NCBI GenBank assembly: GCA_938075585.1
Contig: CALJHG010000012.1
Coordinates: 12,673-76,672 of the forward strand
Direction: 5' to 3'
Length of the DNA stretch: 64,000 bases
Origin: an uncultured Gammaproteobacteria bacterium
Lineage (GTDB): Bacteria; Pseudomonadota; Gammaproteobacteria; Ga0077536
Shown here: positions 15,838-34,302 of the stretch, one piece after another
Position numbering within the stretch: the stretch's first letter is position 1
How the letters are laid out: the number at the start of each line of letters is the position of its first letter
Made by a program: the position numbers and the translations under genes
The notes under the pieces: model-generated
The model's database searches: none
What the model saw: only the letters and a program-made list of their open reading frames with translations
Told to the model about the DNA's origin: nothing

Positions 15838-16611
15838 TTAATAGATCCTGAGGATGGCGGCGTCACCTTCGCCCTCAATATAGTCATCGAATTCATCACC
15901 CGGCGGGTTGCCGTCGTAAATTACATACTCTCTTTGTTGTCTCCATGCTTCCCTCACGAACGCATAGGGATCTAAGGCCGCTTGATCGACCATACGCGTG
16001 GCATCAAGTAAATTTGCTCTGGTATTAACTGCGCTGACAAGACTCGCAGGGATGGTAACTACAGCAGCTAGGTACGTGAGTGGATTTGTAAATACACCCA
16101 TAACTGGAGAACCAATGTCTCTATAGGAGCTAGGTCCCATCAGAGGAATAGTTAAGTAAGCTCCTTCATCAGCGCCCCATCTTCCAAGAGTTTGTCCTAA
16201 ATCTTCTTTCTTTTGAACTAATCCCATCGAGGTTGCAGGATCAAATAACCCGCCGATTCCAATAGTGCTATTGACAACAAACCGCCCGGTGCTTTTTGCA
16301 AAGTCCAGCCCTTTAGCTTGGAGAAGATCATTAGTCATTGTATTTAGTGAAGACACATTATCGAAGAAATTTGTAATTCCTTTTCTGACTACTTTGGGAG
16401 TTACCGCAACATACTTTTTGGCCACAGGTTCAACAAACGATTTATCTAACTTGTCATTAAACGCGTAGATTTTTCTATTCATCGATTCGTGCGGATCGCC
16501 ATTGCTATTATTGGAGGTTGATGCACAGCCAGCCATCAGTAATAAACATAGACCTCCTAGTAATCCTTTAATAAGTCCATTATTTAGTGACATTCTACGC
16601 TGCTCCATCAA
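15838..16611 (-). CDS. mlaA: MlaA/VacJ family outer-membrane lipoprotein
   Basis: Signal peptide with lipobox LLMAGC, then NRKIYAFNDKLDK..EPVAKKY and GPSSYRD, typical of MlaA. Confidence 0.85.
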   Translation of the reverse strand: MMEQRRMSLNNGLIKGLLGGLCLLLMAGCASTSNNSNGDPHESMNRKIYAFNDKLDKSFVEPVAKKYVAVTPKVVRKGITNFFDNVSSLNTMTNDLLQAKGLDFAKSTGRFVVNSTIGIGGLFDPATSMGLVQKKEDLGQTLGRWGADEGAYLTIPLMGPSSYRDIGSPVMGVFTNPLTYLAAVVTIPASLVSAVNTRANLLDATRMVDQAALDPYAFVREAWRQQREYVIYDGNPPGDEFDDYIEGEGDAAILRIY

Positions 16612-16680
16612 GTATTTTTTAATAAATATTACATTATTCTTAGGGTCATATACTACGACTTTTTATCTCATTTAGTCAGT

Positions 16681-17289
16681 TTATTGCAGATTCATGATTT
16701 TATCGTTTAGTTGACTGACCAAGCCCTTAAATCCATCTTTTTTTATCACGTAGGCGTATTCAGCCTGCTTGAGCGCTAAGTCTGACACTCCTTGCGCGAT
16801 CACATTGATTATCTGCCATCTGTCATCTTTTCGCGTGAGCAAATATCGCATCGAGATAGAGTTGTCGTCGACACTGCCGTTCAAAGGAATTAAGCGTGTA
16901 TCAACAATAGTCAATTTCTTTTTATCATTCACTCTTGTCACCAAAAATTTTTCACCGGAAAACTTTGAAAAATGATCCGCGTAAGTAGCTACACTAAGGC
17001 GTTGCAATGTATCCTGAAATACACTCCTCTGTTCGTTAGAGAGGGATCCCCACGAGTCACTAAGAATTATCCTAGCAATAGTCGGGAAGTCAAATGAGGC
17101 CTCTATTACCGGTTTCAGAGTTTCAATTCGTTTAGCGACGGAGGTTTTTTCTGGTAGCTGCATTGCGAGCAACAGTTCGGTATGCAGATTATTTACGGTA
17201 TCTTCAGCCGATACGCTCTTTGGTGCTGCAAATGCAGTTTGCCATAAAGTCAGGGCTACAGTCAGTAAAAGCGAACAAATTAAATTCAT
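16681..17289 (-). CDS. MlaC/Ttg2D-family periplasmic lipid-binding protein (HpnM-like)
   Basis: Cleavable signal peptide (..WQTAFAAP), about 200 aa, size and layout of Ttg2D/MlaC. It sits between mlaA and the hpn genes. The HpnM family of hopanoid clusters belongs to this fold. Confidence 0.65.
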   Translation of the reverse strand: MNLICSLLLTVALTLWQTAFAAPKSVSAEDTVNNLHTELLLAMQLPEKTSVAKRIETLKPVIEASFDFPTIARIILSDSWGSLSNEQRSVFQDTLQRLSVATYADHFSKFSGEKFLVTRVNDKKKLTIVDTRLIPLNGSVDDNSISMRYLLTRKDDRWQIINVIAQGVSDLALKQAEYAYVIKKDGFKGLVSQLNDKIMNLQ

Positions 17290-17352
17290 AATAGGTATTA
17301 TGTAATCGACTCGGCGATTTATACAATCCTTAATCTTTCCTCGGCATCATTT

Positions 17353-18462
17353 TTAAAGATTTCGATAGCTTCGCTCTTTCCATCGGGTACGTTCGCCGCG
17401 CCAACACCGGATGGCAGATGTCCATGTCATCGCAAGAAAAAGAGCACTTGCAAAAGGGAGGGTGAGTAACCAAAAAGCGGGTAAATTATAAAATTTCGTG
17501 ACGGGAAAATATGTGATTGTCATGCAGATGAAGGTGGTAAAGGCCACTAGGCCGATATAGGTATCTGCACTAAAGATCTGTATGAGTGGAATAACGAAAC
17601 ATATCACCATTAGTACCGTACACAGCATAAGCAATGCTAATGAGTAGTTGAGTTGAGTATATGCTGTCCGAGCGACCATATTCCAAATACTTTTAAGACT
17701 AGTGCTGGGTCGAGTAGAGGAGACCAATGTACTGAGTCCTAACCAAGTTTTTCCGCCTTTTTCTTTTATACGTTTTGCTAAAGTACAGTCGTCTATGATT
17801 GCATGCCTGAGACTTGCAAACCCCCCAATTTCTCTGAGTTTTCTAGTTTTTATCAGGATACATCCACCGGCTGCCGCCGCCACACTGGAGGTCCCTTTGT
17901 TTGACAGTGCAAAAGGATAGATAAGTTTGAAAAAATAAATAAAAGGCGGCAGGAGTAATTTTTCCCAGAAGGATTTCACATGAAGTGTTGCCATGACGGA
18001 GACTAAATCGTAATCGTGCTCTTTTTGCTTTTGTAGTAACGCTGCTAATGCACCACATTCTAACTGGATGTCTGCGTCGAGTAGGAGTAAAAGTTCACTA
18101 GAAATATTTGGCAGCCCCTGTTGCAGGGCCCATAGTTTCCCTGTCCAGCCGTCTGGTGGATCTTCTCCATTTACTATTGACACGTTGCTTAGACCAAGTG
18201 TCTCAACGATTGCTGCTGTGCCGTCGCTACTTTGATCGTCAATGACTGTGATATTTTCTAAGTATCCCTGAGATACCAGAGCTCTTAGCGTCCGCTCGAT
18301 ATGCTGCGATTCGTTTCGTGCAGGAATAAGGCCAGACACGGTTTGATGTTGCTTATTTGACGTTAGGTTACTTACCAAGCATTCTTTTGTTGACCATGGC
18401 CTCCATGGCAACAAAAGTAAGATTAACCAAATTAAAGCTGATAAAAAAGTGAGTCCGACCAT
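17353..18462 (-). CDS. hpnB: hopene-associated family-2 glycosyltransferase (HpnB-like)
   Basis: N-terminal TM helix, then IPARNES, DDQSSDGT, GWTGKLWAL, LLLDADI, AAAAGGCIL, IIDDCTLA, MVARTAYTQL and C-terminal TM helices. This matches my memory of the HpnB pattern rather than HpnI. Confidence 0.7.
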   Translation of the reverse strand: MVGLTFLSALIWLILLLLPWRPWSTKECLVSNLTSNKQHQTVSGLIPARNESQHIERTLRALVSQGYLENITVIDDQSSDGTAAIVETLGLSNVSIVNGEDPPDGWTGKLWALQQGLPNISSELLLLLDADIQLECGALAALLQKQKEHDYDLVSVMATLHVKSFWEKLLLPPFIYFFKLIYPFALSNKGTSSVAAAAGGCILIKTRKLREIGGFASLRHAIIDDCTLAKRIKEKGGKTWLGLSTLVSSTRPSTSLKSIWNMVARTAYTQLNYSLALLMLCTVLMVICFVIPLIQIFSADTYIGLVAFTTFICMTITYFPVTKFYNLPAFWLLTLPFASALFLAMTWTSAIRCWRGERTRWKERSYRNL

Positions 18463-18518
18463 ATTTTTTTAAGACCAGCAATCGGATTCATTGTCCGCTA
18501 TAATTCACCTAAGCTAAA

Positions 18519-19649
18519 CTACGCCACTCTTTTTTTGCTTGAACCCTTGTTAGGGGGGGTAAGTTTTTGAACAAGTTGCGGCTTATTTTCCGGCTCCTCA
18601 TCGTAATAAAAAGGTACCTCTGGAGCCATCGATCCCTTCAGTTTCGGTCCCTTAAGAAATACTTTTAGTGCTTTCAACGGGTTTACGAAAGTATCGTCTA
18701 CTGCAGTGGCCTCGTACCCTGAGTGAACCATACAATCGGCGCATTTAGGATTAACACCGGTACCGTACTTATTCCATTCGGTATCATTTATCAGTTCTTT
18801 AAATGTTTTCGCGTAGCCTTCTCCCACCAGCAGATAACAGGGCTTTTGCCAACCAAAAACATTGCGAGTAGGGTTGCCCCAAGGAGTGCAGTGATAGGTT
18901 TGATTCCCTGCCAGGAAGTCAAGATATAAAGTAGATTGGTTAAATCTCCACTTTTTACCTTTACCGACTTTAAATATATCTCTGAAAAGTTGCTTACTTC
19001 CCGTCTTTTTCAGAAAAACATCCTGCTTCGGAGCCCGCTCATATGAGTATCCGGGAGAAATCGTTACACCTTCAACCCCAAGTTCCATCATATTGTCCAT
19101 GAATTGACCTACTTCGTCAGCAGTCTCGCCTTGAAACAGCGTACAGTTCACTGTGACTCTAAACCCTCGGCCTAACGCCTTTTTTATCACTGCGATACAT
19201 TTATCGTAAACACCGGTTCTACAGACTGACGCATCGTGTCTTTCTCTGTCACCATCTAAATGAATCGAAAAGGTAAGATACTTTGAGGGCTCATACGAAT
19301 CCATGTGTTTGTCCAATAGGATCGCATTAGTACAAAGGTATACAAACTTTTTACGCTCTATGTAGCCCTCCACAATTTGGCGCATTTCCTTATGGATTAA
19401 AGGCTCCCCACCGGCAATTGAAACCATCGGAGCTCCGCATTCATCTACGGCCTTCATGCAGTCTTCGTAACTTAGTCTTTTGTTAAGTATCTCAGAGGGA
19501 TAATCTATCTTTCCGCAACCGGCGCATGCTAGATTACATCTGAAAAGCGGCTCTAGCATTAATACCAAGGGATATCTTTTGATTCTTTTTAATTTTTGTT
19601 CGAGTATGTATCTTCCCACGCGGTACTGCTGTATGAGTGGAACTGCCAT
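18519..19649 (-). CDS. hpnH: adenosyl-hopene transferase, radical SAM (HpnH)
   Basis: RYPLVLMLEPLFRCNLACAGCGKIDYP (CxxxCxxC), VSIAGGEPL, LDFLAGNQTYHCTPWGNPTRNVFGWQKPCYL and KCADCMVH. Colinear with characterised HpnH. Confidence 0.92.
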   Translation of the reverse strand: MAVPLIQQYRVGRYILEQKLKRIKRYPLVLMLEPLFRCNLACAGCGKIDYPSEILNKRLSYEDCMKAVDECGAPMVSIAGGEPLIHKEMRQIVEGYIERKKFVYLCTNAILLDKHMDSYEPSKYLTFSIHLDGDRERHDASVCRTGVYDKCIAVIKKALGRGFRVTVNCTLFQGETADEVGQFMDNMMELGVEGVTISPGYSYERAPKQDVFLKKTGSKQLFRDIFKVGKGKKWRFNQSTLYLDFLAGNQTYHCTPWGNPTRNVFGWQKPCYLLVGEGYAKTFKELINDTEWNKYGTGVNPKCADCMVHSGYEATAVDDTFVNPLKALKVFLKGPKLKGSMAPEVPFYYDEEPENKPQLVQKLTPPNKGSSKKRVA

Positions 19650-19832
19650 GTTTTAGTCCTATCTATTTATGGAAACTGGTTGAATTTTAGCGACTTGCGT
19701 CAACTATCACGATTGATTGTCACATTACTGCAATAAGCTTTAAAAGTACAGCATTAGCTACTTATTTCTAGGGAGATGATACGTTAATTTTAGCGGAGTG
19801 ATTTGCGCGGGAAATAAAATTACATACTTGAC

Positions 19833-19861
19833 TTGCAACCCTGGGTGCGGCTCTCCATAAT
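19833..19861 (+). promoter_or_regulatory. candidate sigma70-type promoter for dxs
   Basis: TTGCAA (19833-19838), a 17-nt spacer, then CATAAT (19856-19861), 46 nt before the dxs ATG. Pattern match only. Confidence 0.25.
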
Positions 19862-19907
19862 TCACGGGCTAGAGTTATCCCTTTAAAATTGAGATACTAA
19901 AAATAAT

Positions 19908-21773
19908 ATGACATCCGAAAAAATCTACCCTCTTCTGGACACTATCGCGAGCCCTTTCGACCTTAGGAAGTTGTCGGAGGAAAGTCTCCCACAAATCGCC
20001 GAGGAGGTGAGAGAGTTTTTGATAGACTGCATAAGTGGAGTGGGTGGTCATTTTGCGTCGGGTCTCGGCAGCGTGGAGCTCACGGTAGCGCTTCATTATC
20101 TTTATAACACTCCGGATGATCGGATTGTTTGGGATGTAGGTCATCAGGCTTATCCGCACAAGATACTAACCGGTCGTAAAGGTAAATTGCATACCATTCG
20201 ACAGTCGGAAGGATTGTCACCTTTCCCCAAAAGAGAAGAAAGTGATTACGATACTTTTGGCGTGGGCCATTCGAGTACTTCAATAAGTGCGGCGCTAGGT
20301 ATGGCGATCGCCGCCAAAATAAATAAAACGCGGCGTCGGTCTGTGGCGGTTATAGGAGATGGTGCCATGACTGCAGGTGTTGCGTTCGAGGCGTTAAATC
20401 ATGCGGGTGATATTGAAGCCGACATGCTAGTCATTTTAAATGACAATGATATGTCGATCTCGCCAAATGTTGGCGCGTTATCAAATAGGTTTGCGAAAAT
20501 CCTCTCCGGAAAGCTCTATTCGTCGGTCAGGGAGGGCAGTAAAAAGATGCTGTCTCAAATGCCTTCGATTTGGGAGTTGGCGAGACGGACTGAGGAGCAT
20601 GTCAAGGGGCTTATTGTCCCAGGAACCTTGTTTGAGGAGTTTGGCTTCAACTATATCGGACCGATCGATGGCCATGATTTACCAACTTTGATTGCCACTC
20701 TAAAGAATATTCAAAAATTGTCGGGGCCTCAGTTCCTGCATGTAATCACGAAGAAAGGTAAAGGGTATCCGCGCGCTGAGGAAGATCCAGTTAAGTATCA
20801 TGGGGTTAGTGCCTTTGATCCTGCGGTAGGCATACTTCGTTCGGCAGCCAAAAAGCGTCCGAATTATAGCGATATTTTTGGTGACTGGATTTGTGATATG
20901 GCGGCTAAGGATGACCTTTTGGTTGGGATTACACCAGCCATGAGAGAGGGCTCGGGTTTGGTTGAGTTTCAAAAATTATACCCAGAACGTTACTTTGATG
21001 TGGCGATCGCTGAACAGCACAGTGTTAACGTTGCGGCGGGAATGGCGTGCGATGGGTTAAAACCAGTTGTCGCGATTTATTCTACGTTTTTACAGCGCGG
21101 ATATGATCAAGTAATTCACGACGTATGTAATCAAAATCTTCCAGTGTTATTCGCGTTAGATAGAGCAGGCCTGGTCGGGGCTGACGGCCCTACGCACAAT
21201 GGAAGCTACGATTTAACTTTTTTAAGATGCTTACCCAATATGATGATCATGGCGCCCGCAGATGAAAACGAATGCCGCCAAATGTTATACACTGGCTTCC
21301 TTGGAGAGGGCCCCGCGGCGATTCGATACCCCAGAGGAACTGGACCTGGAGTAAATGTTGATGACGAAATGTATGAGCTGCCAATAGGTAAGGGCGCGGT
21401 GGTGTCAGATGGGCAAGAAGTGGCCATTTTATCTTTTGGTACGACACTTGAGATAGCTAAAGCTGTGGGTGATGATATCGGAGCAACAGTCGTAAATATG
21501 CGATTTGTGAAACCTATCGATGAGGAGTTAATTTTAGAAATTGCTAAAAGCCACCGCTTCATTTTCACCATCGAAGAAAATATGGTGGCAGGAGGAGCTG
21601 GCAGCGCGGTCAACGAAGTATTAGCAGAAAATAATGTAATAGTACGTGTCGCGAATTATGGGTTACCCGATCGACTAATACAACACGGATCACGAGATGA
21701 CATGCTCGTGGACGCTGGCCTCACAGAGACAGCATTTGCGTCATTCATTCAAGGACGTATTGCAGCCGATTGA
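19908..21773 (+). CDS. dxs: 1-deoxy-D-xylulose-5-phosphate synthase
   Basis: [26 protein letters not shown], ThDP motif [11 protein letters not shown], and IAEQH. 621 aa. Confidence 0.96.
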
Positions 21774-21774
21774 G

Positions 21775-22851
21775 TTAAGTTAGAGCTCTCTTCAACGCGC
21801 GCATTAATCGGTTGATATCTGTCTCGGAGATATCTCCCATCGGTGAAATTCTAAAGACTTCACTGGAAAATTTCCCTTGCCCCGCGTAAATAATAAAGCC
21901 AGAGCTTTTTAGTTCGTCATGTAGCTCCACGTATGTTTTTTTGGGAGGTAGTTTGAAACTAGCTAAAACACAAGAAGATTCCTCTCTATTAATCAACTCC
22001 TCTATACCGAGCCCGCTTAAGCAGCCCCTAATAGTGTTCATGCGATGTTGAAAAGTTGCGTTCCGTTGTCTCCAGCCACCGTGTTCAATAAACTCGTCAA
22101 GTGCCTCGTTTAGAGCGTAGAAGCATTGCACTGACTGAGTGAAAGGAGTTTCACCGCAATCTTGCTTGCTTAGATAAGTGGATAAATCCAGATAAACTGT
22201 TTTGGGAGGTCTAGCGGCGGCGAGAGCTGCCCGGTTGACCAATACAAAGGCAGCTCCGGGCACTCCGTGCAGACATTTATTAGCAGTAGCTGCGCACGCA
22301 TCAAGATTCCATTTTTCGAACTCAATATTCTCGCCGCCGAAACTGCTAACGCCATCTAGCAAAATACGCACCTCATGACGCTTACATATTTTCCCGAGCT
22401 GCTCAAGTTTGTTCAGGCGACCGGTTGTTGTTTCATGATGTACTAACGCAATGTGAGAAAACTGTTTTTGTTCCAGTATCGTTTCCAATTTATCGCCTTC
22501 TATAGCGTCAAGCCAGTCGGAATTTAAAACATCGTATTTTATTCCGTGAGCATGCGCAATTTTAGTCATGCGTTCGCCATACACCCCATTTTCCACAATC
22601 AAAATACGCTGATTTTCGGGTACAAGACTAGCAATCATCGCTTCTACTGCCGCAGTACCTGAGCCGGTGAGTAGAACACTCGCCCAGGTCGTAGCATCGA
22701 GATTATAGATTGAGATAAGTTTTTTTCTGATGGACTCCTGTAATAAACTGAACTCAGGCTCACGGTGGCAAAGATCCTCCTTGCCGAGCGCGTCACGTAC
22801 TCTCTTGGATAGCGATACCGGACCAGGATTTAGTAGGATTAATGGATTCAT
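21775..22851 (-). CDS. 2-aminoethylphosphonate:pyruvate aminotransferase (PhnW/AEPT type, class V PLP enzyme)
   Basis: LLNPGPVSLS, VHHETTTG, TANKCLHGVPGAAFV (PLP lysine) and FRISPMG. Colinear with Salmonella PhnW (SANKCIQGVPGFAFV, FRIGNIG). It is the last gene of the PepM operon. Confidence 0.85.
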   Translation of the reverse strand: MNPLILLNPGPVSLSKRVRDALGKEDLCHREPEFSLLQESIRKKLISIYNLDATTWASVLLTGSGTAAVEAMIASLVPENQRILIVENGVYGERMTKIAHAHGIKYDVLNSDWLDAIEGDKLETILEQKQFSHIALVHHETTTGRLNKLEQLGKICKRHEVRILLDGVSSFGGENIEFEKWNLDACAATANKCLHGVPGAAFVLVNRAALAAARPPKTVYLDLSTYLSKQDCGETPFTQSVQCFYALNEALDEFIEHGGWRQRNATFQHRMNTIRGCLSGLGIEELINREESSCVLASFKLPPKKTYVELHDELKSSGFIIYAGQGKFSSEVFRISPMGDISETDINRLMRALKRALT

Positions 22852-22867
22852 CTGAATTCTTATTTAT

Positions 22868-24028
22868 TTATAAATTGTTACTGTCGGTTGAGGCAATAGT
22901 GCGCATGAAACGTTGTAAAACTTCCGCTGGCTTAATCGCCGGTCTGGGTAAGTTCTCTATTGTGCCCGCTCGAATCTTTACGTGCATAAAATGACATCCC
23001 TTTTCAGTTTCATTACCAAGAAAATCGTCTAAGTACTTAAGTGAGTCGCTGCGCCAGACATGTTGGTAACCGCATGCCAATGCTATCTCAGAAAAGCCAG
23101 TTGCTCTAGATACGGTTTGCTGACCACCTGTAGAGTCATGCGCTTCATTATCAAGCAGCACATGTTTCAGATTACTAGGAGAATAAGCACCAATTGTGGC
23201 TAAATTGCCCATGCGCATGAGTGCAGCCCCGTCTCCATCGATAATTACAACTTTTAAGTCCGGCCTAGCTAATGCTAAACCTAGAGCTAGCGATGAGGCG
23301 CACCCCATCGAGCCAACCATATACAGATGGTTCGCACGATCGTTAATAGCGTAAAGCTCTCGTCCTGTATAACCAGTAGTCGCGATAAGAACTGTTTTCT
23401 CATCATTGGTTGCCTGAACAAGTTTTTTTAATACCTCGTGTCGCGTTAGTAGATTTGCGTGACTAGGTTCTTCAATAAATCTTTGGTTTTTCGCTGCTAT
23501 TGGTGCTGTCTGATCCTTTAACGTATACGGCGCCACAGATCCTTTTTCCATGATTAGAGCCTGTGGCAAACTACTTTCGTGCATGTTTGCCAACGCGGTT
23601 TCGATTGTTGTATTTATATTCTCTGACTTAGTTGGGAACCTAGCTACTGGAATACCAATAGTCTCAAATAATTTGCTCGTGATCTTACCCATAAGTTCAT
23701 GCTGTGGTTCGTCAGTAAGATTGGGTGCCCCGCGATGAGTGCAAATTATGAGTAATGGTATTTTGAAGGTATAAGTCAGCGATGTTAGTGGACTAATTGC
23801 GTTCCCTAAACCTGAATTCTGCATTATAGCAACGGAGGAGACTCCTCCAATTGCAGCTCCAGCCGCGGTAGCAACCGCATCGCCTTCGTTAGCGGCAGAA
23901 ATATATGTCAATGATCTTTCGTTAATCACATAGTTGATTAATGGTGTCAGAAATGAACATGGTACACCAGCATAAAAAGTAATATTTTTACTTTTCATTT
24001 CATCAATAAACTCTTTTGCGTCGATCAC
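22868..24028 (-). CDS. phosphonopyruvate decarboxylase
   Basis: N-terminal IDAKEFIDEMKSKNITFYAGVPCSFL and ThDP motif IIDGDGAALMRMGN..LLDNEAHDSTG. It lies immediately downstream of PepM. I place the start at GTG 24028 (M-IDAKEF), which removes the track's 41-nt overlap with PepM. Confidence 0.88.
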   Translation of the reverse strand: MIDAKEFIDEMKSKNITFYAGVPCSFLTPLINYVINERSLTYISAANEGDAVATAAGAAIGGVSSVAIMQNSGLGNAISPLTSLTYTFKIPLLIICTHRGAPNLTDEPQHELMGKITSKLFETIGIPVARFPTKSENINTTIETALANMHESSLPQALIMEKGSVAPYTLKDQTAPIAAKNQRFIEEPSHANLLTRHEVLKKLVQATNDEKTVLIATTGYTGRELYAINDRANHLYMVGSMGCASSLALGLALARPDLKVVIIDGDGAALMRMGNLATIGAYSPSNLKHVLLDNEAHDSTGGQQTVSRATGFSEIALACGYQHVWRSDSLKYLDDFLGNETEKGCHFMHVKIRAGTIENLPRPAIKPAEVLQRFMRTIASTDSNNL

Positions 24029-24038
24029 TTTATGACTC

Positions 24039-26419: not shown

Positions 26420-27165
26420 TGTTTTCGCCCAATTAGTCGTTTCCACAATTCCGCGAAACCGAAGTAGGCGATAGCATCTTTCATATCAGATACAAAGCGC
26501 AGATAAGGGGACATGTTTGTGGAGGTTACATATTCCATGGTAAGCGCCACACGTTTTTCATTTACGCCACTAGGGGTGACTCGGTGTCTTACTTTGTCAC
26601 CGTTAAAAAACACAAGCTCGCCAGGCATCAATTTTATACTTTTCATAACAGTCTTAGCACCCTTTATCTTCGTGTAAAGTTCACACTCCAGTCTACAGGA
26701 AGAATTATCCTGCAGGCCGACTAACGCAGTGTATCTTGATTCGGAGTAGTACGAGGTATCGTAGTGGAATCCTATGTGATCTCCTTTTCGGGTATAGAGA
26801 TACAAGGCATATGCATGTGCGTCATTAGGGGGACAAGTTAATAATTTTTTATCCGTGATTTGAGAAAAGAGGTTTAAGCTAGATTTTGAGAAATAGACTT
26901 CTTTAAATGGCGGCGCATGCTCTTCTAAGCGAAAGCGAGAAACACTACCCCCGCTTTTATGTTTTGGGAGGTAGCTCCTGTGGACGTAAGGTTCAACTTC
27001 CGGCAGTATTTCTAACAATTGATTTGTTATACTCGCGGGCAAGAAGTCTGGAATGCGAATGAACTCGTCTGCTTTGAGAAAATCATCTCGCAAAATTCGG
27101 CCGTCAAATTGATTAATATGGGACGCTATTTCGTTTTCTATTTTAGTTTTGGATAGTGATTCCAT
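26416..27165 (-). CDS. Fe(II)/2-oxoglutarate-dependent oxygenase superfamily protein
   Basis: HxD...H facial triad candidates (GFHYDTS, then DKVRHRVTP) followed by RVALTMEY (a 2OG-binding Arg position). 249 aa. It is the first gene of the phosphonate operon. Confidence 0.6.
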   Translation of the reverse strand: MESLSKTKIENEIASHINQFDGRILRDDFLKADEFIRIPDFLPASITNQLLEILPEVEPYVHRSYLPKHKSGGSVSRFRLEEHAPPFKEVYFSKSSLNLFSQITDKKLLTCPPNDAHAYALYLYTRKGDHIGFHYDTSYYSESRYTALVGLQDNSSCRLECELYTKIKGAKTVMKSIKLMPGELVFFNGDKVRHRVTPSGVNEKRVALTMEYVTSTNMSPYLRFVSDMKDAIAYFGFAELWKRLIGRKQ

Positions 27166-27307
27166 ATCAGTATGATACTAAAATTTCTCGTTAATAGGTC
27201 TCTGTTGAGAGATCGTTGTTCGGCGAATTTGGTAGCAACTCGAATTTCGAGATTTTCCAAGGTTTAACGGTTATATCGATCAGGTTGGGGTAGTACAAAG
27301 AGAATCC

Positions 27308-28318
27308 ATGTCTAAGAGCATAAAAGTGTTATTTCTGTTACTAGGTGTTGCATTGTTGCTTCTAGTCATACGAGAAACAGACATTGAGAAATTGTGGCAG
27401 CACGTTACTTCTGTCGGTTTCTCAGGTATTTGTTTAATACTAATCGTGTATTTTTTCTATTTTGGGTCCGACGTCTTAAGTTGGCAAGTAGTACTAATTA
27501 AGTCCAGATTAAGTTTCCGCTGGTTCCTCCGACTTTATGCAGCTCGAATGGTTGGCGAAGCTTATAATAACATCACTCCTACTGCCTCTCTGGGCGGGGA
27601 GCCAATAAAGGCATGGCTGATGAAGGCGAACTGGGGCGTTCCGCTCCGCGATTCTGCTTCGTCTTTAGTCATCACTAAGACCGCTAGTATGTTATCCCTG
27701 AGTATTTTTGGGGCGATCGGTATTTTCTTGATGCTAGGCGAGGCCGTGTTCACAGTCACAGAAAAGAATGCAGCTATAGCCAGTGTGGTTTTCGTGATTT
27801 TTTCCACGATTGTGTTTTTTTTGATGCAGTATTTCCGGTTTTCCTCTTCTATTACTAAAAAGTTAGGACGCTTTGAATTTGCTAAAAATCTTACTAGTTC
27901 GTTCGCGGCTGTGGAAGACATTGATGATCAGTTCGTATCGTTCTACCAACGACATTACGTACTAGCATTTTTTTCGTGCTTGGCTGCAATGTGTAGTTGG
28001 CTATTCGGTGTTTTGGAAATATATGTCATTCTTTATCTGATAGGCTTTCCTTTAAGTATCCAAGAAGTATTTATTGTTGAGAGTGTTGTCCAGTTGGTGA
28101 GAGTCGTTACATTCTTCATACCAGCGGGGCTCGGGACTCAAGAAGGTGCTTTTTTGTTCACAATAGGCGCTCTTACCGGTTTGCCGGCATTGGGGGTTGC
28201 GACGGCTTTGCTCAGACGTTTCAGAGATTTTATTTGGATTGCTGGTAGCTTAGTGCTTGCCTCATTTTATTCTATCAAACCATGGTCTTCGTCGATTAAT
28301 TCTGTCGAAGACGGGTGA
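27308..28318 (+). CDS. UPF0104/LPG-synthase-TM (flippase-like) membrane protein, HpnL-like
   Basis: About 8 TM helices, with the family-typical SLGGEPIKA and IPAGLGTQEGAF motifs. It is located between the phosphonate operon and hpnA. Confidence 0.65.
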   Translation: MSKSIKVLFLLLGVALLLLVIRETDIEKLWQHVTSVGFSGICLILIVYFFYFGSDVLSWQVVLIKSRLSFRWFLRLYAARMVGEAYNNITPTASLGGEPIKAWLMKANWGVPLRDSASSLVITKTASMLSLSIFGAIGIFLMLGEAVFTVTEKNAAIASVVFVIFSTIVFFLMQYFRFSSSITKKLGRFEFAKNLTSSFAAVEDIDDQFVSFYQRHYVLAFFSCLAAMCSWLFGVLEIYVILYLIGFPLSIQEVFIVESVVQLVRVVTFFIPAGLGTQEGAFLFTIGALTGLPALGVATALLRRFRDFIWIAGSLVLASFYSIKPWSSSINSVEDG

Positions 28319-28330
28319 TTCTAGTTGTAG

Positions 28331-29320
28331 CTATTTCGATACAAAGTCATCAAACCACTTTGTGGCGTCTTCTATTGCTGTGACTGCTGATCTGCTCTTG
28401 TAATTGAGTTCTCGTCGAGCTTTGTCCGAGCTAAAGTACATTTGATAGGCAGCCATTTTTAAGCCCTCCACAGTAGCTTGTGGGGCTGGTCCATTAGTTA
28501 ACCAAGCCCAAAATTCAGAGATATAGGCTATTGGAAATATTAATTGCCTTGGTAAACAGATCCTCGGAGGTCTGCCGCCGCTAGCCTTAGCGACATAAAA
28601 TAAGATCTCCTTTAGTGTTAAGTCCTCGCCACCGAGTATGTATCTTTCTCCCACAGCACCACGCTGAAACGCTAGTATGTGTCCAGTTGCTATGTCATCC
28701 ACATGCGCAATATTCAATCCAGTATTCACGTAGGCAGGCATACGTCCATTTATTGCGTCTAAAATAATTCTGCCTGTGGGAGTCGGTTTTGCATCTCGAG
28801 GGCCAATGGGGGTCGAAGGATTTACAATAACGGCAGGCAAACCCTCGGTTCGGATTAATCGATCTACTTCTTTTTCGGCTAAAAATTTGGACCTCTTATA
28901 ATGTCCAATCATGTCAGAAAGCTTCGATTGGGTGGATTCGTCCGATACTGCGCCATCCTTTGTCACGCCTATAGTAGCGACACTACTAGTGTAGACTACA
29001 CGCTCAATACCACCCTCAAGCGCTCCTAACATGATATTTTTTGTTCCTAAAACATTGTTATCATATAAATCCTTGGAGCGGCGTGCCCATAGTCGGTAAT
29101 CCGCCGCCACATGATATAGGTGATTGCAGCCGCGGAGTGCATTTTTTATTGATGAAGGATCTTGTATATCTCCCACGAATTTTTCCGCTTCAATATCTTG
29201 AATTGTGCTTGTGTTACTGCTCTTCCGAATTAGTAATTTAATTTCGGCACCAGTTTTTTGTAGTGCACGGGCGATCGAGTTTCCGAGGAAACCGGTAGCC
29301 CCGGTGATTAATGTCTTCAT
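28331..29320 (-). CDS. hpnA: hopanoid-associated NAD-dependent sugar epimerase/SDR (HpnA)
   Basis: MKTLITGATGFLGNSIARAL Rossmann motif and YxxxK (YKRSK). 329 aa. It is the last gene of the sqs-hpnG-hpnN operon. Confidence 0.75.
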   Translation of the reverse strand: MKTLITGATGFLGNSIARALQKTGAEIKLLIRKSSNTSTIQDIEAEKFVGDIQDPSSIKNALRGCNHLYHVAADYRLWARRSKDLYDNNVLGTKNIMLGALEGGIERVVYTSSVATIGVTKDGAVSDESTQSKLSDMIGHYKRSKFLAEKEVDRLIRTEGLPAVIVNPSTPIGPRDAKPTPTGRIILDAINGRMPAYVNTGLNIAHVDDIATGHILAFQRGAVGERYILGGEDLTLKEILFYVAKASGGRPPRICLPRQLIFPIAYISEFWAWLTNGPAPQATVEGLKMAAYQMYFSSDKARRELNYKSRSAVTAIEDATKWFDDFVSK

Positions 29321-29322
29321 TA

Positions 29323-29919
29323 TTACCAGCTGCCTCCTACTACACTTCGGTACTGTTTATAGACGATAATGGCGCCAACAGGGGCGCCGATTGTTGCAGC
29401 GTACAAGAACAGTTGCAGTCCTTCGCACATTGTTACTATCGGTAAAAGATATAGAACATCTTCCGCCTCAAGCCCCGCCAAACTTGGTTGTTTAGTACCA
29501 ACCTTACCTATAGTGTCTTCAATTAGATAACGTAAATGGAAAATAAATGCCACCGAAAATCCTGCCAACATACCACCCAGTAGGTTAGACATTTGAACTG
29601 AGCTACTCAAGCCATATCCTATACTGACAAACAATAGTATCGTCACAATCCCGTCGGAAACTAGATCGAACAGATGCCCAAAACGAGTTGCTTTCTCGCC
29701 TATTCGGGCTAGTTCTCCATCCATGTGATCGATGAAGTTAGATAGCGCTATCATGAATGCAGCGGTGTTAATATGATCAGAAAAGGCAAATAGCCAACAA
29801 CCCATAACACCAATTAGCAGGCGCAGTGATGTGAAGTGGTTTGGTTGAACTGCTGTCGAAGATGCGAAAGGTGTGACAAGCCAAGCTGCTAACCGAGCAT
29901 CCCACGGTTTATTTCTCAT
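29323..29919 (-). CDS. CDP-alcohol phosphatidyltransferase family protein
   Basis: Exact signature D(x)2DG(x)2AR(x)8G(x)3D(x)3D in DHMDGELARIGEKATRFGHLFDLVSD. 198 aa, about 5 TM helices. Its ATG lies 11 nt inside the 3' end of hpnN, and its stop is 2 nt from the hpnA start. Confidence 0.85.
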   Translation of the reverse strand: MRNKPWDARLAAWLVTPFASSTAVQPNHFTSLRLLIGVMGCWLFAFSDHINTAAFMIALSNFIDHMDGELARIGEKATRFGHLFDLVSDGIVTILLFVSIGYGLSSSVQMSNLLGGMLAGFSVAFIFHLRYLIEDTIGKVGTKQPSLAGLEAEDVLYLLPIVTMCEGLQLFLYAATIGAPVGAIIVYKQYRSVVGGSW

Positions 29920-32530
29920 AATTTGTTGTCCTGGGTCGCATAAAATATTCTAATAGATGGGGTAGAAGAATTAAGGAACAGATTAAATTAATAATCAGAC
30001 CAATTGATAGCAGTACCCCCATACTAGCCGTCCCAGCATGTGGGGAAAACGCTAGATTACCGAAGCTCGCTCCTGTTGTCAGCGCACTCAAAAAAACAGC
30101 TTTAGCCGTGCCCGTTCTAAGAAAGTGTTCATCTTTTTGTTGCATACGCTTGTATCGATAAAGCACATGAAGCGTGCTGTCTACACTTATCCCGACTAGG
30201 AGAGGTAGTGCAATAATGTTCGCAAAATTGAACGATATGTCTAGTGCGACTAGAATCGCAACCGTGAAAACACATCCGATGACTAAAGGAGTCATAACGA
30301 CTAACAGCTGTTTAAGATGTCTAGTTGATAGCCAAACTACAGCCGTTACAACGGCTATCGCGAATAAGAATGCCTGCGTAAACGAGGTTATCACTGCCTG
30401 GCTAGCCTCAGCATTTATGATCGGGACACCTGTCGCGTTTTGTCCGACGATTTCGCGAACCTTATTTATAAAGAGCACTATTTTTTCATTGGTATCTAAA
30501 ATATTTTTCGGAATGATTTCGAGGCGATAACTACCGTCATTGCTTACCCAGCGTTCCTTCAATGTTTTAGGTAAAGATTGTAGGCTGATTTTCTCGGCTT
30601 CGGTCCCAGCATTAATCTGTGAAATCAGTGTGGGGAAATGACGCATAATATGTGAGTCTAATTGGCGGTAGAATTTTCTTTTCTCGTGATCATCAAGATT
30701 CATATTCGCTTGTTTTAACCTATTAAGCGTTTTAGAAAACGCAAGCGTCTGAAATGTTGGATTATCGATATCTTTAATTGTGTCCAAATTCCTACTGATA
30801 TTTTTCTCTAAAAGGAGAGGGTCATTGTCGGGTGAGCCGATTTCGATATCACCGCCCAGTGACCACATCATATTTTCGATGATTTTTAATTTTTCATCTT
30901 GGTCATTCGGGATAAAATTTTGCAGTGTTCTGACTTCTTTAACCTCAGGTAACATCATCAACTCGGATGCCAGACTATGAGATTCTTGCTCGTTTTTAGC
31001 TATAAAATTAATTGAGTCTATAGCCACTATCCCGTCCAAAGAAAGGTCATTGAGTGTTGTAACCGACTCAGCTTCCGGATTGTTTAAATGGATTGGGTTT
31101 ATATCAAATTCAGCTTGCTTTGCTATATTCAGTCCCCCAAGGAAAATTAAAGCTGAGACAATCAAAAATGATTTTCTTGAGAGAGCGAGTAGGGGTTTAT
31201 TCTTTTTGTGGGTATTTTTTCGATATTTATGTAATGGTACTTTCGGAAAAATTGAGATCATTGCGGGTAAAATAGTAAAGCTGGATAAAAGTCCAACGAT
31301 CATTCCGGCGCCCGCGATTAACCCTAACTCTGCAACGCCTTTGTAAGTCGTCGGAATAAAGGCTAAAAATCCTATGCTTGTCGTAAATGCGCAAAGAGAT
31401 AATGGTGCAATATTGTGCGCCGTTGCTCTATCAAGTGCTTTCGCTTGGGGTTTTTTGATACTTTCTTCCACATATGTGGAGTAAAAATGGATTGCGAAGT
31501 CCGCAGCCAGTCCCACGTAGAGCACTGAGAAAGCGATGGAAATCATATTAAAACTTCCTATCGCTATTGCTGCGAAAGCAGAGGTATAAGTTAGGCCAAG
31601 GATAACTACAAACATTATTGAAAAAACTGCTGACGGCGATTTAAGTCCGATACTTAAAACCAGTAATATGGCAGTCAATGCTAAAATTCCTGCTTGGCCC
31701 GCACCCTGTATCACACTGTTTAATTCGTCATACCCAAGTGCTGCTTGGCCCGTTAGTCGCACATTAACGTTAGGCCATTTCTCAGCAGAGATGGAATCAG
31801 AGATGCCCCTTATACGATCGATTAACTTTGACCCAGGTAGCAATTCGTCAAACTTAAGGTCTGGTTGGATCGTAAACAGTACCCGATGATCATGCAGAAC
31901 ATCACGCTCACTATTTAACAAGCTCTGCCAAGACATCGGAGTATTAGCTCCAGACATGAAAGAATCCAAAGAATTAGTTAAAGAATCTACGAATGACCTA
32001 CTTCCTTCAATATTTTGGTTGGTATTCTTGTTATGGATTAAATTAGTAATATCCAACAAACCTAAAACACTAGGATCTTGAGCAAGCATTCCAAGCAGAG
32101 CTTGAGATTGAGTAAGAGTGTCTGCTACAGCTACTAATTTATCTGGGGCTAGGTAGAGGAATTTATTTTGTCGAAAAAAATCTTCTGATTCAGGAAAGAA
32201 AATGTTCTCTGGATTGACGCCGAAGTTGACGATTTCTTTCCGAAAATAGGAGCTTGCTTCGAGGGTTAACTCGGCGGTTGGTCCTTCAACAACTACAATG
32301 ATCGTGTCTGAAAAAAACGGAAATTTTTCTTTGTAGTTACTGTGAGCGATACGCCAATCAAGTTGGTCTGAAAGCATATTTTCTGTATTGGTATCAATTC
32401 GAGCATACTGGATCGTTATCCATGTACTTAATACAGAAGCAAGGATTGCTGTAACGACGACCAGGTATTTTTTACTGATACTAAATTGCACCAGACCAGA
32501 GAGACATTGATTGACGCAGTTTGAAATCAC
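29909..32530 (-). CDS. hpnN: RND/MMPL-type hopanoid transporter (HpnN)
   Basis: 873 aa with two 6-TM bundles and two large periplasmic loops (MMPL/RND architecture), flanked by hpnG and hpnA. Confidence 0.8.
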   Translation of the reverse strand: MISNCVNQCLSGLVQFSISKKYLVVVTAILASVLSTWITIQYARIDTNTENMLSDQLDWRIAHSNYKEKFPFFSDTIIVVVEGPTAELTLEASSYFRKEIVNFGVNPENIFFPESEDFFRQNKFLYLAPDKLVAVADTLTQSQALLGMLAQDPSVLGLLDITNLIHNKNTNQNIEGSRSFVDSLTNSLDSFMSGANTPMSWQSLLNSERDVLHDHRVLFTIQPDLKFDELLPGSKLIDRIRGISDSISAEKWPNVNVRLTGQAALGYDELNSVIQGAGQAGILALTAILLVLSIGLKSPSAVFSIMFVVILGLTYTSAFAAIAIGSFNMISIAFSVLYVGLAADFAIHFYSTYVEESIKKPQAKALDRATAHNIAPLSLCAFTTSIGFLAFIPTTYKGVAELGLIAGAGMIVGLLSSFTILPAMISIFPKVPLHKYRKNTHKKNKPLLALSRKSFLIVSALIFLGGLNIAKQAEFDINPIHLNNPEAESVTTLNDLSLDGIVAIDSINFIAKNEQESHSLASELMMLPEVKEVRTLQNFIPNDQDEKLKIIENMMWSLGGDIEIGSPDNDPLLLEKNISRNLDTIKDIDNPTFQTLAFSKTLNRLKQANMNLDDHEKRKFYRQLDSHIMRHFPTLISQINAGTEAEKISLQSLPKTLKERWVSNDGSYRLEIIPKNILDTNEKIVLFINKVREIVGQNATGVPIINAEASQAVITSFTQAFLFAIAVVTAVVWLSTRHLKQLLVVMTPLVIGCVFTVAILVALDISFNFANIIALPLLVGISVDSTLHVLYRYKRMQQKDEHFLRTGTAKAVFLSALTTGASFGNLAFSPHAGTASMGVLLSIGLIINLICSLILLPHLLEYFMRPRTTNYEK

Positions 32531-32539
32531 GCTTTTCGC

Positions 32540-33217
32540 CTATTTAATAAGCAAATCAGCACTGGAGCTGAGTGTTTTTAATGCTTTACGAAAATGAAAC
32601 GATAGTTCGATTAGACTTTTTAGTTCCTTTGGTCTGTACGCTAACTGTTTTAGTACTTTGAACATTACTTGATTCCCTTGAGAGTCCATGCCGGCAAGCG
32701 CTGAAGATGGTATTTCAAAATTTCCGCTATCAACGATAGCTCTTATGGACAGAAAGCCGCAGCTGTTTTTTTTGGCTATTTTTGCTATAGCAATAGATTC
32801 CATGTCTACTGCATCGGCACTACTGGCATCGTGTAATTTTGATTTTTCTGCCGGTGAAATTATCGGTTTTTCGCTAGAGGTAATTCGGCCCAGAATTGGA
32901 TTTAGCGGGTTTAGCTCATCAATAACTCGTTTTCCAAGATCACTAGTAAAATCCAGTGTTTGGTCAGAAATAGTTTCGACCTGCTGACTTATCAATAGCC
33001 TTCCTGGTTGTAGTGACTGATTTAGTCCTCCACCGACGCCCCAACTTATGAAAAAATCATGTCCCTCCGATAAAAGTTGCTTGGCGGCTTTTTCAGCATA
33101 TTTCAAGCCTGGACTCGCCATACGCACAGTAAACGGAATTTCTCCTAACAATTGGCCAATTTTATTTTCCAGAGCTTTCGCTTCAGAGGCCATAGCCACA
33201 ATGATTCCAATTTTCAT
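32540..33217 (-). CDS. hpnG: hopanoid-associated nucleoside phosphorylase (HpnG)
   Basis: PNP_UDP_1-type N-terminus MKIGIIVAMASEAKAL and DMES. Start taken at ATG 33217; the track's TTG 33226 would overlap sqs by 4 nt. Confidence 0.8.
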   Translation of the reverse strand: MKIGIIVAMASEAKALENKIGQLLGEIPFTVRMASPGLKYAEKAAKQLLSEGHDFFISWGVGGGLNQSLQPGRLLISQQVETISDQTLDFTSDLGKRVIDELNPLNPILGRITSSEKPIISPAEKSKLHDASSADAVDMESIAIAKIAKKNSCGFLSIRAIVDSGNFEIPSSALAGMDSQGNQVMFKVLKQLAYRPKELKSLIELSFHFRKALKTLSSSADLLIK

Positions 33218-33222
33218 TGTGC

Positions 33223-34302
33223 TCAAGTATCTTGTGAGTCTACAAGGTCGCTAATACTTCTAATTGGGACAGTCACCGGAGTGACGCGCAAACTTTTAGT
33301 TCCCAGTTTGAATAAAATATTTAAGTACTGGTTCGAGCGAGATAGAAAGCTCGTAGCTCCAATTGTCGCTGTGACCCAACGTCTCGAAATTTTTACCTCT
33401 GAGCCACTTTTAAAAGACGGATTCTTATTTATTTTTACAAGAGTGAGTATCGCCATTCCAAGTGCCCATAAACAAAATCGTCTTATCCCAGGTTGATTGC
33501 GCGGTAGCATTAGAGTGAATTTTAGAGCATTTTTCAAATGGCCGGCGGCTAGAGCGACTAGATCTTGTAATCCTAACTCGAATTGAGTCCCTTCTTCTCC
33601 TGGGATGACTTTACTTAATTCAACATTGTAGTTTAGAAAGGTTTGTTGTGGGAGCCAGCAAACCCCCCGTTCCTTGTCGGTCCAAATATCCTTTAGGATA
33701 TTCGTCATCTGTAAGCCTTGCCCAAAAGAGACCGAAAGTTGGAGGAGGTAATTTTTTTTATCAGATAGCTCTGGGCAATAATCACAAAAAATGTGAGTTA
33801 ACATTTCACCAACAACACCCGCTACGAAATAGCAATATTGGTCCATCTCATCTTGGTCGAGAAGTCCTTCTGAGGACTCGTGACCCTGGTACATCATCAT
33901 GCCTTTTGCCATTTTAGTCACACACTTGATGATAGCGTCTTTCTGTTCAGGCTTAAGGTCGTGAGTAATTCTCGTGACCTTGTCAGTTGACTCGATAAGC
34001 TTGAGTTCATCTCGGGGTGTATCCACTGACAAGTTCTTTACTAAGGCTTCCGAAAAAAGCTGTGCGTCACCATCACTTGCTATTACCCGCACAAATTGAC
34101 GTGACAGGTCGGACTTTATTTCTAGCGATAAGTCGGGGTCATCCTCGATCGTATCTTGTATGCGGCAAAGTAGATATGCGTTACCGACAGCACGCTCTAA
34201 TATTGGTGGTAGTTGTGGAATAGTGAGGGCGAAAGTTCTCGAGACACCAAATAGAATGTCCTTTTGAAAGTACTCATCTTCTAGAGTTGGTGCGTTGACC
34301 AT
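33223..34302 (-). CDS. sqs: squalene synthase (farnesyl-diphosphate farnesyltransferase, single-enzyme SQS type)
   Basis: SRTFALTIPQLP..AYLLCRIQDTIEDD (first Asp-rich region) and YCYFVAGVVGEML, resembling SQS (SRSFAAVI..RALDTLEDD). 359 aa with a C-terminal hydrophobic tail. Confidence 0.8.
   Translation of the reverse strand: MVNAPTLEDEYFQKDILFGVSRTFALTIPQLPPILERAVGNAYLLCRIQDTIEDDPDLSLEIKSDLSRQFVRVIASDGDAQLFSEALVKNLSVDTPRDELKLIESTDKVTRITHDLKPEQKDAIIKCVTKMAKGMMMYQGHESSEGLLDQDEMDQYCYFVAGVVGEMLTHIFCDYCPELSDKKNYLLQLSVSFGQGLQMTNILKDIWTDKERGVCWLPQQTFLNYNVELSKVIPGEEGTQFELGLQDLVALAAGHLKNALKFTLMLPRNQPGIRRFCLWALGMAILTLVKINKNPSFKSGSEVKISRRWVTATIGATSFLSRSNQYLNILFKLGTKSLRVTPVTVPIRSISDLVDSQDT

Follow-up and report, generated by a model that had tools for sequence, protein, structure and literature searches.

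The genes for biosynthesis of 2-aminoethylphosphonate (AEP) lie in the midst of hopanoid (hpn) genes on contig CALJHG010000012.1 of an uncultured marine gammaproteobacterium, which raises the question of which lipid the phosphonate is meant for. The stretch analysed, here called the window, is 64 kb long and the block in question spans positions 15838-34302. A listing of open reading frames (ORFs) was combined with Pfam and NCBIfam profile searches, and all 16 named ORFs were located at the coordinates given below. The original prediction, made from the sequence alone, was that AEP or a hydroxylated AEP is attached to a lipid made or trafficked by the hpn machinery, in the simplest case a bacteriohopanepolyol (BHP). 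The analysis leaves about an even chance that AEP or hydroxy-AEP, activated with cytidine monophosphate (CMP), is transferred to an extended hopanoid which is then flipped by HpnL and exported by HpnN, HpnM and an MlaA-like protein.

The phosphonate cassette and its published relatives

The AEP operon was found, as predicted, on the minus strand from 27165 down to 21775, and it encodes five proteins. These are a 2-oxoglutarate (2OG)/Fe(II) oxygenase of 249 amino acids (26416..27165), a standalone PntC-like cytidylyltransferase of 255 amino acids (25679..26446), PepM fused to a C-terminal PF12804 nucleotidyltransferase (NTase) domain of PntC type (24039..25682), the phosphonopyruvate decarboxylase Ppd (22868..24079) and an AEP transaminase (AEPT) of the PhnW/AepZ type (21775..22851). 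PepM (TIGR02320, 387 bits with a cut-off of 319.6), Ppd (TIGR03297, 437.8 bits, cut-off 312.5) and AEPT (TIGR03301, 384.4 bits, cut-off 360.8) together make AEP. PepM carries the EDKxxxxxNS motif at residue 115, and its NTase domain, spanning residues 302-419, matches LicC (1jyk, E 2.4e-10) and PntC (6pd1, E 5.6e-8). The standalone NTase has 6pd1 (PntC Tde1415) as its best PDB match (E 4.4e-9) and the IPCT half of IPCT/DIPPS as its best NCBIfam match. Both NTases are thus related to characterised PntC and LicC enzymes and are predicted to be AEP cytidylyltransferases; PntC makes CMP-AEP (PMC6697681).

Reading of the sequence confirmed the tight junctions of the operon, with ATGA or GTGA overlaps and gaps of 16 nucleotides (nt) or less. 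The 2OG gene meets the NTase gene at an ATGA and the NTase gene meets pepM at a GTGA, while Ppd and AEPT are separated by 16 nt. The probable start of the standalone NTase is the ATG at 26419, which gives the ATGA overlap with the 2OG stop codon. Ppd probably starts downstream of the listed TTG, as the TIGR03297 alignment begins at residue 32.

Together with a CDP-alcohol phosphotransferase gene (29323..29919, minus strand) and an HpnL-like gene (27308..28318, plus strand), these five genes form an assembly that is already known. Judged by gene content and similarity, the cassette is the seven-gene core of the Burkholderiales_CDP-OH family (Li et al. 2022, PMC8942020), which is the same as the family that Yu et al. 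2013 named Group 1 phosphonolipids. The published core consists of a PepM-NTase fusion, Ppd, AEPT, a 2OG oxygenase, a second PntC, a CDP-alcohol phosphotransferase and an LPG-synthase-TM gene (PMC8942020). In that study it accounts for 36% of all ppm neighbourhoods, more than any other family in RefSeq. Its predicted product, for which two 'phospholipid biosynthesis' genes are cited, is a 1-hydroxy-AEP phosphonolipid, and no product has ever been characterised (PMC8942020).

All seven genes have recognisable orthologues in the window. Searches of chromids with tblastn found them as one co-directional run (CDP-alcohol phosphotransferase, 2OG enzyme, HpnL, NTase, PepM-NTase, Ppd and AEPT) in Burkholderia cenocepacia, Burkholderia multivorans, Burkholderia arboris, Burkholderia stagnalis, Cupriavidus sp. 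P-10, Mycetohabitans and Pandoraea. Identities between the window and B. cenocepacia, Cupriavidus, Mycetohabitans and Pandoraea are 42-60%, with HpnL at 24-29%. In the first three of these the matches are full length and in module order, with 46-48% identity for the 2OG enzyme, 42-44% for PntC and 49-51% for the CDP-alcohol phosphotransferase (50% with the Burkholderia module gene). The phosphotransferase and the HpnL-like gene are core genes of the published family and therefore count as part of the cassette and not of the hopanoid set, and the idea that the cassette and the transferase form a new assembly has to be given up.

The window nevertheless differs from the published core in its arrangement. 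The core is split and interleaved with hpn side-chain and transport genes, so that neither the window nor any locus of the same gene order (Type A below) has a single co-directional run of seven genes. The phosphotransferase gene is parted from the 2OG gene by hpnA and the reverse-strand HpnL-like gene, and sits in the hpnN operon. The host also differs, being an uncultured marine gammaproteobacterium, and the published description of the family makes no mention of hopanoids and no link to the HpnL of TIGR03476 (PMC8942020).

Phosphotransferase genes of this kind were also seen outside the module. Two TARA contigs (L052 and L055) have two or three tandem paralogues, and the 20 kb there contains neither hpn genes nor further genes of the module. 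A second CDP-OH_P_transf gene (L005:912-2440), divergent to an epimerase-family gene, was seen in a gammaproteobacterial genome of 5.3 Mb (L005), where it lies upstream of the main cluster at a distance of about 9 kb.

Recurrence of the module beside hopanoid genes

A PepM protein search of genome contigs gave four loci, and a metagenome scan with an alignment of the CDP-alcohol phosphotransferase gave 80 loci that were then examined with a tblastn gene panel. The order of the window (Type A) was found in the window clade and runs squalene synthase (SQS), HpnG, (HpnN), CDP-alcohol phosphotransferase, HpnA, HpnL in reverse orientation, 2OG enzyme, NTase, PepM, Ppd and AEPT, followed by dxs in reverse orientation, HpnH, HpnB, HpnM and MlaA. 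It is held in relatives with 70% identity in AroC and about 40% in HpnN, and the phosphotransferase gene, as called in L005 and L006, overlaps hpnN and hpnA by 4 nt each. Because the order is kept in relatives this diverged and in many metagenome contigs, the layout is not a product of chance.

Other arrangements bring the same genes together. In five soil metagenome contigs (Type C) HpnH, SQS, squalene-hopene cyclase (SHC), HpnG and HpnA precede the seven-gene run, and in the soil metagenome locus L062 (Type D) the order is SHC, HpnG, HpnH, IspH, HpnN, the run, MlaA and HpnM. Among the Burkholderiaceae the run is followed in Mycetohabitans by dxs, HpnN, HpnM, IspH, HpnH, HpnA, HpnB, HpnG, SHC and HpnD, and in Pandoraea by dxs and HpnN. 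Roseomonas marmotae has six module genes, without the 2OG gene, between hpnN/mlaA and ispH-hpnH-hpnG-shc-hpnEDC-hpnB-hpnA. The shc gene is present in the Type C and Type D loci, in Mycetohabitans and in Roseomonas, and dxs comes after AEPT in Type A loci, Mycetohabitans and Pandoraea. Five hpn-linked gene orders were found over the Alpha-, Beta- and Gammaproteobacteria.

At least one core hpn gene was found in 31 of the 80 metagenome loci. When only the 40 informative loci, showing at least 5 kb upstream of the phosphotransferase gene, are considered, 17 have hpn genes. The linked loci are scattered over several separate places among the unlinked ones in a rough neighbour-joining tree of the phosphotransferase. 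A subclade of the unlinked loci (Type B) has an Omp85-superfamily gene in ten loci, lying directly upstream of the phosphotransferase gene in one (L083:4374-6020); all ten are soil loci, the other nine being L036, L057, L060, L061, L069, L078, L086, L092 and L095.

The neighbourhood survey proposed with the original prediction thus found a juxtaposition that recurs, and a core that also occurs far from hpn genes. Occurrence of the cassette without hpn genes, as in Burkholderia and the soil contigs, is half of what that prediction had named as evidence against itself, yet the pairing is neither unique nor limited to a single lineage.

The recurrence bears on the possibility that there is no functional link, the AEP module having entered an hpn island, or been passed on next to one, and being kept there by neutral synteny while AEP goes to a glycan, lipopolysaccharide or another acceptor. 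The flanking genes aroC and mlaA are also syntenic in the window lineage, so the conservation is partly vertical, and the PepM-Ppd-AEPT trio is found alone in unrelated settings, namely a Streptomyces non-ribosomal peptide synthetase cluster and Oceanispirochaeta. However, such neutrality fits poorly with five gene orders in three proteobacterial classes, and with a linked fraction of 17/40 where a rough estimate of our own for a random locus is below 1%. It also fits poorly with the coupling of the phosphotransferase gene to hpnN and hpnA, with HpnL as a shared component and with the existence of domain fusions. The absence of a functional link is therefore considered very improbable.

The transferase, HpnL and the lipid acceptor

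The CDP-alcohol phosphotransferase (198 amino acids, PF01066) is the putative head-group transferase of the module. It has the complete DxxDGxxAR(x8)GxxxDxxxD signature (D64-D89, DHMDGELARIGEKATRFGHLFDLVSD at residue 64), whose D, G, A and R residues vary hardly or not at all among 17 homologues. Its best PDB matches are AF2299 and IPCT-DIPPS and its best NCBIfam matches are archaetidylinositol-P and PIP synthases. The predicted location within the hopanoid operon is correct. The gene overlaps the hpnN stop codon by 11 nt, is separated from hpnA by 2 nt, and is translationally coupled to both. HpnN (29909..32530, minus strand) is an inner-membrane hopanoid transporter of the resistance-nodulation-division type, scoring 778.5 bits with TIGR03480 (cut-off 751.85) and falling under the stricter cut-off of NF052374 (593 vs 1100). 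HpnA (28331..29320, minus strand), a hopanoid-associated epimerase of the short-chain dehydrogenase/reductase type (TIGR03466, 463 bits, cut-off 368), is encoded next to the phosphotransferase in clusters of Types A and C.

Only 21 clusters at 50% identity (E up to 1e-30) make up the phosphotransferase subfamily, and fusions to several partners occur in it. Fusions to HpnL are seen in both domain orders (three singleton metagenome sequences: P0430, P0513 and P0519), and there is a fusion to a PntC-like NTase (P0411/P0538), which mirrors IPCT/DIPPS. A fusion of 473 amino acids to the 2OG enzyme (P0394/P0545 and L107:10001-11422) is recurrent in Pandoraea assemblies (Pandoraea iniqua). Fusion to full-length HpnN was seen once (P0465 and L106:176-3445; 806 bits vs a cut-off of 752); this is a single 3.6-kb contig without a linker between the domains, maybe a merged or frameshifted gene call, and is for that reason counted as adjacency only.

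Enzymes of the PF01066 family take a substituted phosphoryl group off a CDP-activated donor and pass it on to an alcohol, and in IPCT/DIPPS it is the small head group that is activated in this way and acts as donor. The NTase and the phosphotransferase of the module resemble the two halves of that enzyme as a pair. As in IPCT/DIPPS and the Kennedy-type enzymes, a cytidylyltransferase would activate a small head group and a PF01066 enzyme would pass it to an alcohol, and the proteins have sequence matches to both halves of IPCT/DIPPS as well as to PntC and LicC. The differences are that the donor here would be a CMP-phosphonate and that the two proteins are separate in the window.

Donor and acceptor could also be reversed, so that CDP-diacylglycerol would be the donor and the hydroxyl group of 1-hydroxy-AEP the acceptor, giving phosphatidyl-hydroxy-AEP whose phosphonate is free. 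CDP-diacylglycerol and a small alcohol are indeed the substrates of most PF01066 enzymes of bacteria (PgsA, PssA, PIP synthase), the NCBIfam matches to archaetidylinositol-P and PIP synthases point the same way, and the Pandoraea fusion to the 2OG enzyme would be compatible with such a reaction. On the other hand, Roseomonas keeps the phosphotransferase, PntC and HpnL without a 2OG gene and so would have no acceptor hydroxyl, two PntC-type cytidylyltransferases would be left without a role, and the fusion that mirrors IPCT/DIPPS makes the head group the activated donor. The reversed reaction is accordingly regarded as very improbable.

The flippase-like gene provides the second point of contact. 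With TIGR03476 (cut-off 195.65) the module gene scores 371 bits in B. cenocepacia, 330 in Mycetohabitans and 260 in Roseomonas, and by these scores the LPG-synthase-TM gene of the published core is a member of the HpnL family. The window gene is a divergent member (PF03706, 103 bits; TIGR03476, 145 bits with a cut-off of 196) that is akin to the flippase domain of MprF; TIGR03476 is its only NCBIfam match, and a sequence search gave no PDB match for HpnL. HpnL is listed as a protein of unknown function whose gene is enriched near shc (PMC12324291). It is reported to be absent from alphaproteobacterial genomes without hpnH (PMC12583986), and the hopanoid literature treats it as confined to BHP producers. 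That a protein tied to BHP is obligatory in the module even when the module is unlinked is the main argument for an extended hopanoid as the lipid substrate.

HpnL is not restricted to phosphonate loci. A bona fide HpnL (337 bits) was found in a complete hpn cluster of Methylobacterium bullatum that has no phosphonate genes (L100:6297-26548, NZ_LR743510.1). This cluster contains dxs, hpnA, hpnC, hpnD, hpnE, shc, hpnG, hpnH, hpnN, hpnI and hpnM, and HpnL lies beside hpnM, followed by hpnI. The layout may point to a general role of HpnL in the handling of amine-bearing BHPs. In Paraburkholderia HpnL stands alone. Mycetohabitans megaplasmids (NC_014718.1, M. rhizoxinica pBRH01, and eight others) have two HpnL-like matches each. 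MprF likewise couples a head-group-adding enzyme to a PF03706 flippase-like domain, and the fusions of the phosphotransferase to HpnL mimic it. HpnI, HpnJ and HpnK are a precedent for polar amine-bearing groups on C-35 of bacteriohopanetetrol (BHT). Unlike these systems, the module would carry out a phosphonyl transfer instead of aminoacylation or glycosylation, and the flippase role of HpnL is putative.

The main rival to a hopanoid acceptor is an ordinary phosphonolipid, in which AEP or hydroxy-AEP is transferred from CMP-AEP to diacylglycerol or another non-hopanoid lipid to give a C-P analogue of phosphatidylethanolamine. Linkage to hpn genes would then reflect co-regulation or a common route by HpnN, HpnM and the MlaA-like protein for two outer-membrane lipids. 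A phosphonolipid is what has been published as the prediction for the cluster family (PMC8942020). In Burkholderia, in Cupriavidus sp. P-10 and in many soil contigs the module occurs by itself, and some Type B loci have the Omp85 gene upstream instead of hpn genes. Kennedy-type CDP-alcohol phosphotransferases, moreover, classically take diacylglycerol acceptors. What an ordinary phosphonolipid leaves unexplained is the constant presence of HpnL, a family of BHP producers, and the position of the transferase gene, wedged in independent arrangements either between the hpnN and hpnA genes or with hpnA/hpnG on one side and the module on the other. No phosphonolipid has been found in well-studied Burkholderia (PMC8942020), but a 1-hydroxy-AEP lipid would be isobaric with phosphatidylethanolamine and easily missed. 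This explanation is judged unlikely, though it deserves to be taken seriously.

The gene assignments bear out the predicted chemistry from phosphoenolpyruvate (PEP) to AEP and CMP-AEP, with transfer by the CDP-alcohol phosphotransferase. For a phosphonate-capped hopanoid the pathway would begin with conversion of PEP to phosphonopyruvate, phosphonoacetaldehyde and AEP, and PntC would form CMP-AEP. The 2OG enzyme would hydroxylate AEP or CMP-AEP, probably at C1. At the cytoplasmic face the membrane-bound phosphotransferase would release CMP and esterify the phosphonyl group to a lipid alcohol, most likely that of an extended hopanoid polyol such as BHT made via HpnH and HpnG. HpnL would then flip the zwitterionic product, and HpnN, HpnM and the MlaA-like protein would carry it to the outer membrane. 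The predicted [M+H]+ values are 654.4857 for AEP-BHT and 670.4806 for hydroxy-AEP-BHT. Since 1-hydroxy-AEP is isomeric with phosphoethanolamine, lipids with this head group could be mistaken for phosphoethanolamine species.

The 2OG enzyme would be an optional tailoring step because Roseomonas lacks the gene. No PDB match was obtained by sequence, and the fold is seen only through an AlphaFold2 model (predicted local distance difference test score 92) and Foldseek, where the top matches are HalB, HalD and HalA and the lysine hydroxylase 7jsd. The fold compares with the BesD/Hal family, whose members halogenate or hydroxylate free amino acids, at a TM-score of about 0.70 and 14-18% identity, and the model fits a small amine substrate such as AEP or CMP-AEP, of which the enzyme is predicted to be a hydroxylase. 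A halogenase, to which the Pfam match to HalD had pointed, was ruled out. H134, D136 and H194 are invariant in 37 sequences (H134-Y-D136), with HxD where halogenases have HxG/A, which makes the enzyme hydroxylase-type. A phosphonate hydroxylase of the PhnY* or TauD type was also rejected; the Pfam matches are only HalD (PF23169) and 2OG-FeII_Oxy_3 (PF13640), and there is no NCBIfam match.

Several observations weigh against a phosphonate-capped hopanoid. The clustering can reflect co-regulation or co-export instead of covalent linkage. Of the informative metagenome loci 23/40 have no hpn gene; only about 3.4 kb is visible downstream of unlinked modules, so some of these negatives carry no information. 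In four Burkholderia species a distance of 1-2 Mb separates the module from hpnH on one replicon, and around the module of Cupriavidus sp. P-10 no hpn gene was seen for 20 kb. In the window the HpnL-like, HpnG-like and HpnB-like proteins all score under the NCBIfam cut-offs. No shc-sized or shc-like ORF was found in the window or in the 10 kb past its 3' end, so hopanoid synthesis here is deduced from hpnH, hpnN and sqs only. The fusion to HpnN may be a frameshift merge in one contig.

Homologues of the 2OG enzyme (51-52% identity) also count against it, as they stand alone in Symploca sp. (L010:10001-10750) and in an Acidobacteriota metagenome-assembled genome (L012:10001-10774), with neither pepM nor hpn genes in the surrounding 10 kb. 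Both adjoin extracytoplasmic function sigma factor genes; the Symploca homologue lies beside a Cupin_7 gene and the acidobacterial one beside a PDZ-domain gene. The family may have a substrate other than AEP, and these solitary homologues make the substrate assignment the weakest step of the pathway. As for the literature, the open-access texts searched contained no pairing of hopanoids with aminoethylphosphonate or phosphonolipids and no description of a phosphorus-bearing BHP, and the term 'phosphon' is absent from the hopanoid genomics papers PMC12324291 and PMC12583986.

The claim that AEP ends up on an hpn-trafficked lipid is partly supported. The juxtaposition is conserved and recurrent, while attachment to a hopanoid is still inferred and shc is not in the window. 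Its novelty is also reduced, since a phosphonate-terpene product is already in print. It has been suggested in passing for Nitrosococcus oceani (NOC_RS07100-RS07285, PMC7285500), for gene cluster family (GCF) 731 of Nitrosococcus (PMC8942020) and for shc-pepM hybrid clusters of Roseomonas and Belnapia (PMC8776678). The Nitrosococcus and Roseomonas clusters share with the window AEP genes beside squalene and hopanoid genes in Proteobacteria and a phosphonoterpene as the speculated product, but they were published as one-line antiSMASH/BiG-SCAPE remarks with no gene-by-gene analysis. The layout in R. marmotae was confirmed directly, and differs in the lack of a 2OG gene and in having HpnCDE in place of a single SQS; that of Nitrosococcus is likened by its published description.

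The 1-hydroxy-2-aminoethylphosphonate sphingophosphonolipid of Bacteriovorax stolpii is the only structurally proven bacterial lipid with an AEP or hydroxy-AEP head group (PMC8942020). It shares with the product proposed here the head group and a cluster of the AEPT type, but has a sphingoid acceptor, belongs to another family (GCF 761) and has no hpn genes.

The hopanoid flanks and the wider meaning of the locus

The identities and positions claimed for the AEP and hpn genes agree with the ORF list and the profile scores. HpnH, HpnA, HpnN and HpnM, like PepM, Ppd and AEPT, are above the NCBIfam cut-offs, whereas for HpnB, HpnG and HpnL the expected profile is the best match but below its cut-off. 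On one flank, all on the minus strand, are an MlaA/VacJ-like lipoprotein (15838..16611; PF04333, 234 bits), HpnM, an MlaC-like periplasmic lipid carrier (16681..17289; TIGR03481, 163.5 bits, cut-off 160.1), an HpnB-like family 2 glycosyltransferase (17353..18462; TIGR03469, 376.3 bits, cut-off 379.25) and the radical-SAM adenosyl-hopene transferase HpnH (18519..19649; TIGR03470, 553.7 bits, cut-off 225). Formation of the C35 side chain begins with the reaction of HpnH. The MlaA-like protein is the proposed outer-membrane end of hopanoid transport; its gene keeps its position in L001 and L008, and the protein is the proposed 'HpnS' of a 2025 preprint (PMC12324291). The gene for DXP synthase, dxs (19908..21773, plus strand; TIGR00204, 907 bits), is convergent with the AEP operon.

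On the other flank, beyond hpnN and also on the minus strand, are an HpnG-like nucleosidase/phosphorylase (32540..33226; best match TIGR03468, 154 bits, cut-off 187) and a single-enzyme, eukaryote-type SQS (33223..34302; PF00494, 178 bits; best NCBIfam match TIGR01559, below cut-off). The two genes overlap at a TTGA, and the place of the HpnG-like gene after SQS is conserved. HpnG converts adenosylhopane to ribosylhopane. Activation of phosphoribosyl-hopane by the standalone NTase was considered and dropped, since this NTase is PntC-like and stays with the module far from hpn genes. A divergent intergenic region of 142 bp (27166..27307) separates the 2OG-led AEP operon from the HpnL-like gene; a promoter/terminator scan was uninformative, with fewer promoter-like sites than in shuffled sequences.

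Outside the block the window has further isoprenoid genes, ispG and a polyprenyl synthase gene (1915-3153 and 39531-40226, both on the minus strand), and an ORF of 300 amino acids without a Pfam match beside a luciferase-like monooxygenase (37243-38145, plus strand). An Rfam search found one tRNA only (48540-48613, plus strand). Past the 3' end of the window (L103:7485-9780) is a trio of radical SAM/DUF3641, family 2 glycosyltransferase and DUF2064 genes.

The window is a further member of a known and chemically unsolved cluster family. What is added here is the breadth of the linkage to hpn genes, the identity of the flippase-like gene of the module as HpnL and the evidence from fusions. The phosphonate field has an abundant seven-gene cluster whose product was never found, and the hopanoid field has HpnL, HpnA and HpnB without a function. 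The identity of HpnL, the repeated embedding in hpn clusters and the coupling of the transferase to hpnN and hpnA join the two problems. It is a tentative generalisation, held with slightly less than even confidence, that the whole Group 1 or CDP-OH family is no glycerophosphonolipid pathway but a hopanoid-tailoring one that caps BHP with AEP or 1-hydroxy-AEP, with HpnL flipping this and other amine-bearing BHPs. Both questions can be put to hosts that grow in culture and are partly tractable, namely Burkholderia, Mycetohabitans, Nitrosococcus oceani and Roseomonas.

Should a diacylglycerol lipid be the product, the locus would simply add one more case to a known cluster family, though its genomic setting is unusual. 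A phosphono-hopanoid, on the other hand, would be a new class of membrane lipid, a possible biomarker and a phosphatase-resistant component of the outer membrane, and both HpnL and the module would gain a function. Such a lipid would also be a lipid-bound source of phosphonate in marine Gammaproteobacteria, adding to the marine phosphonate pools.

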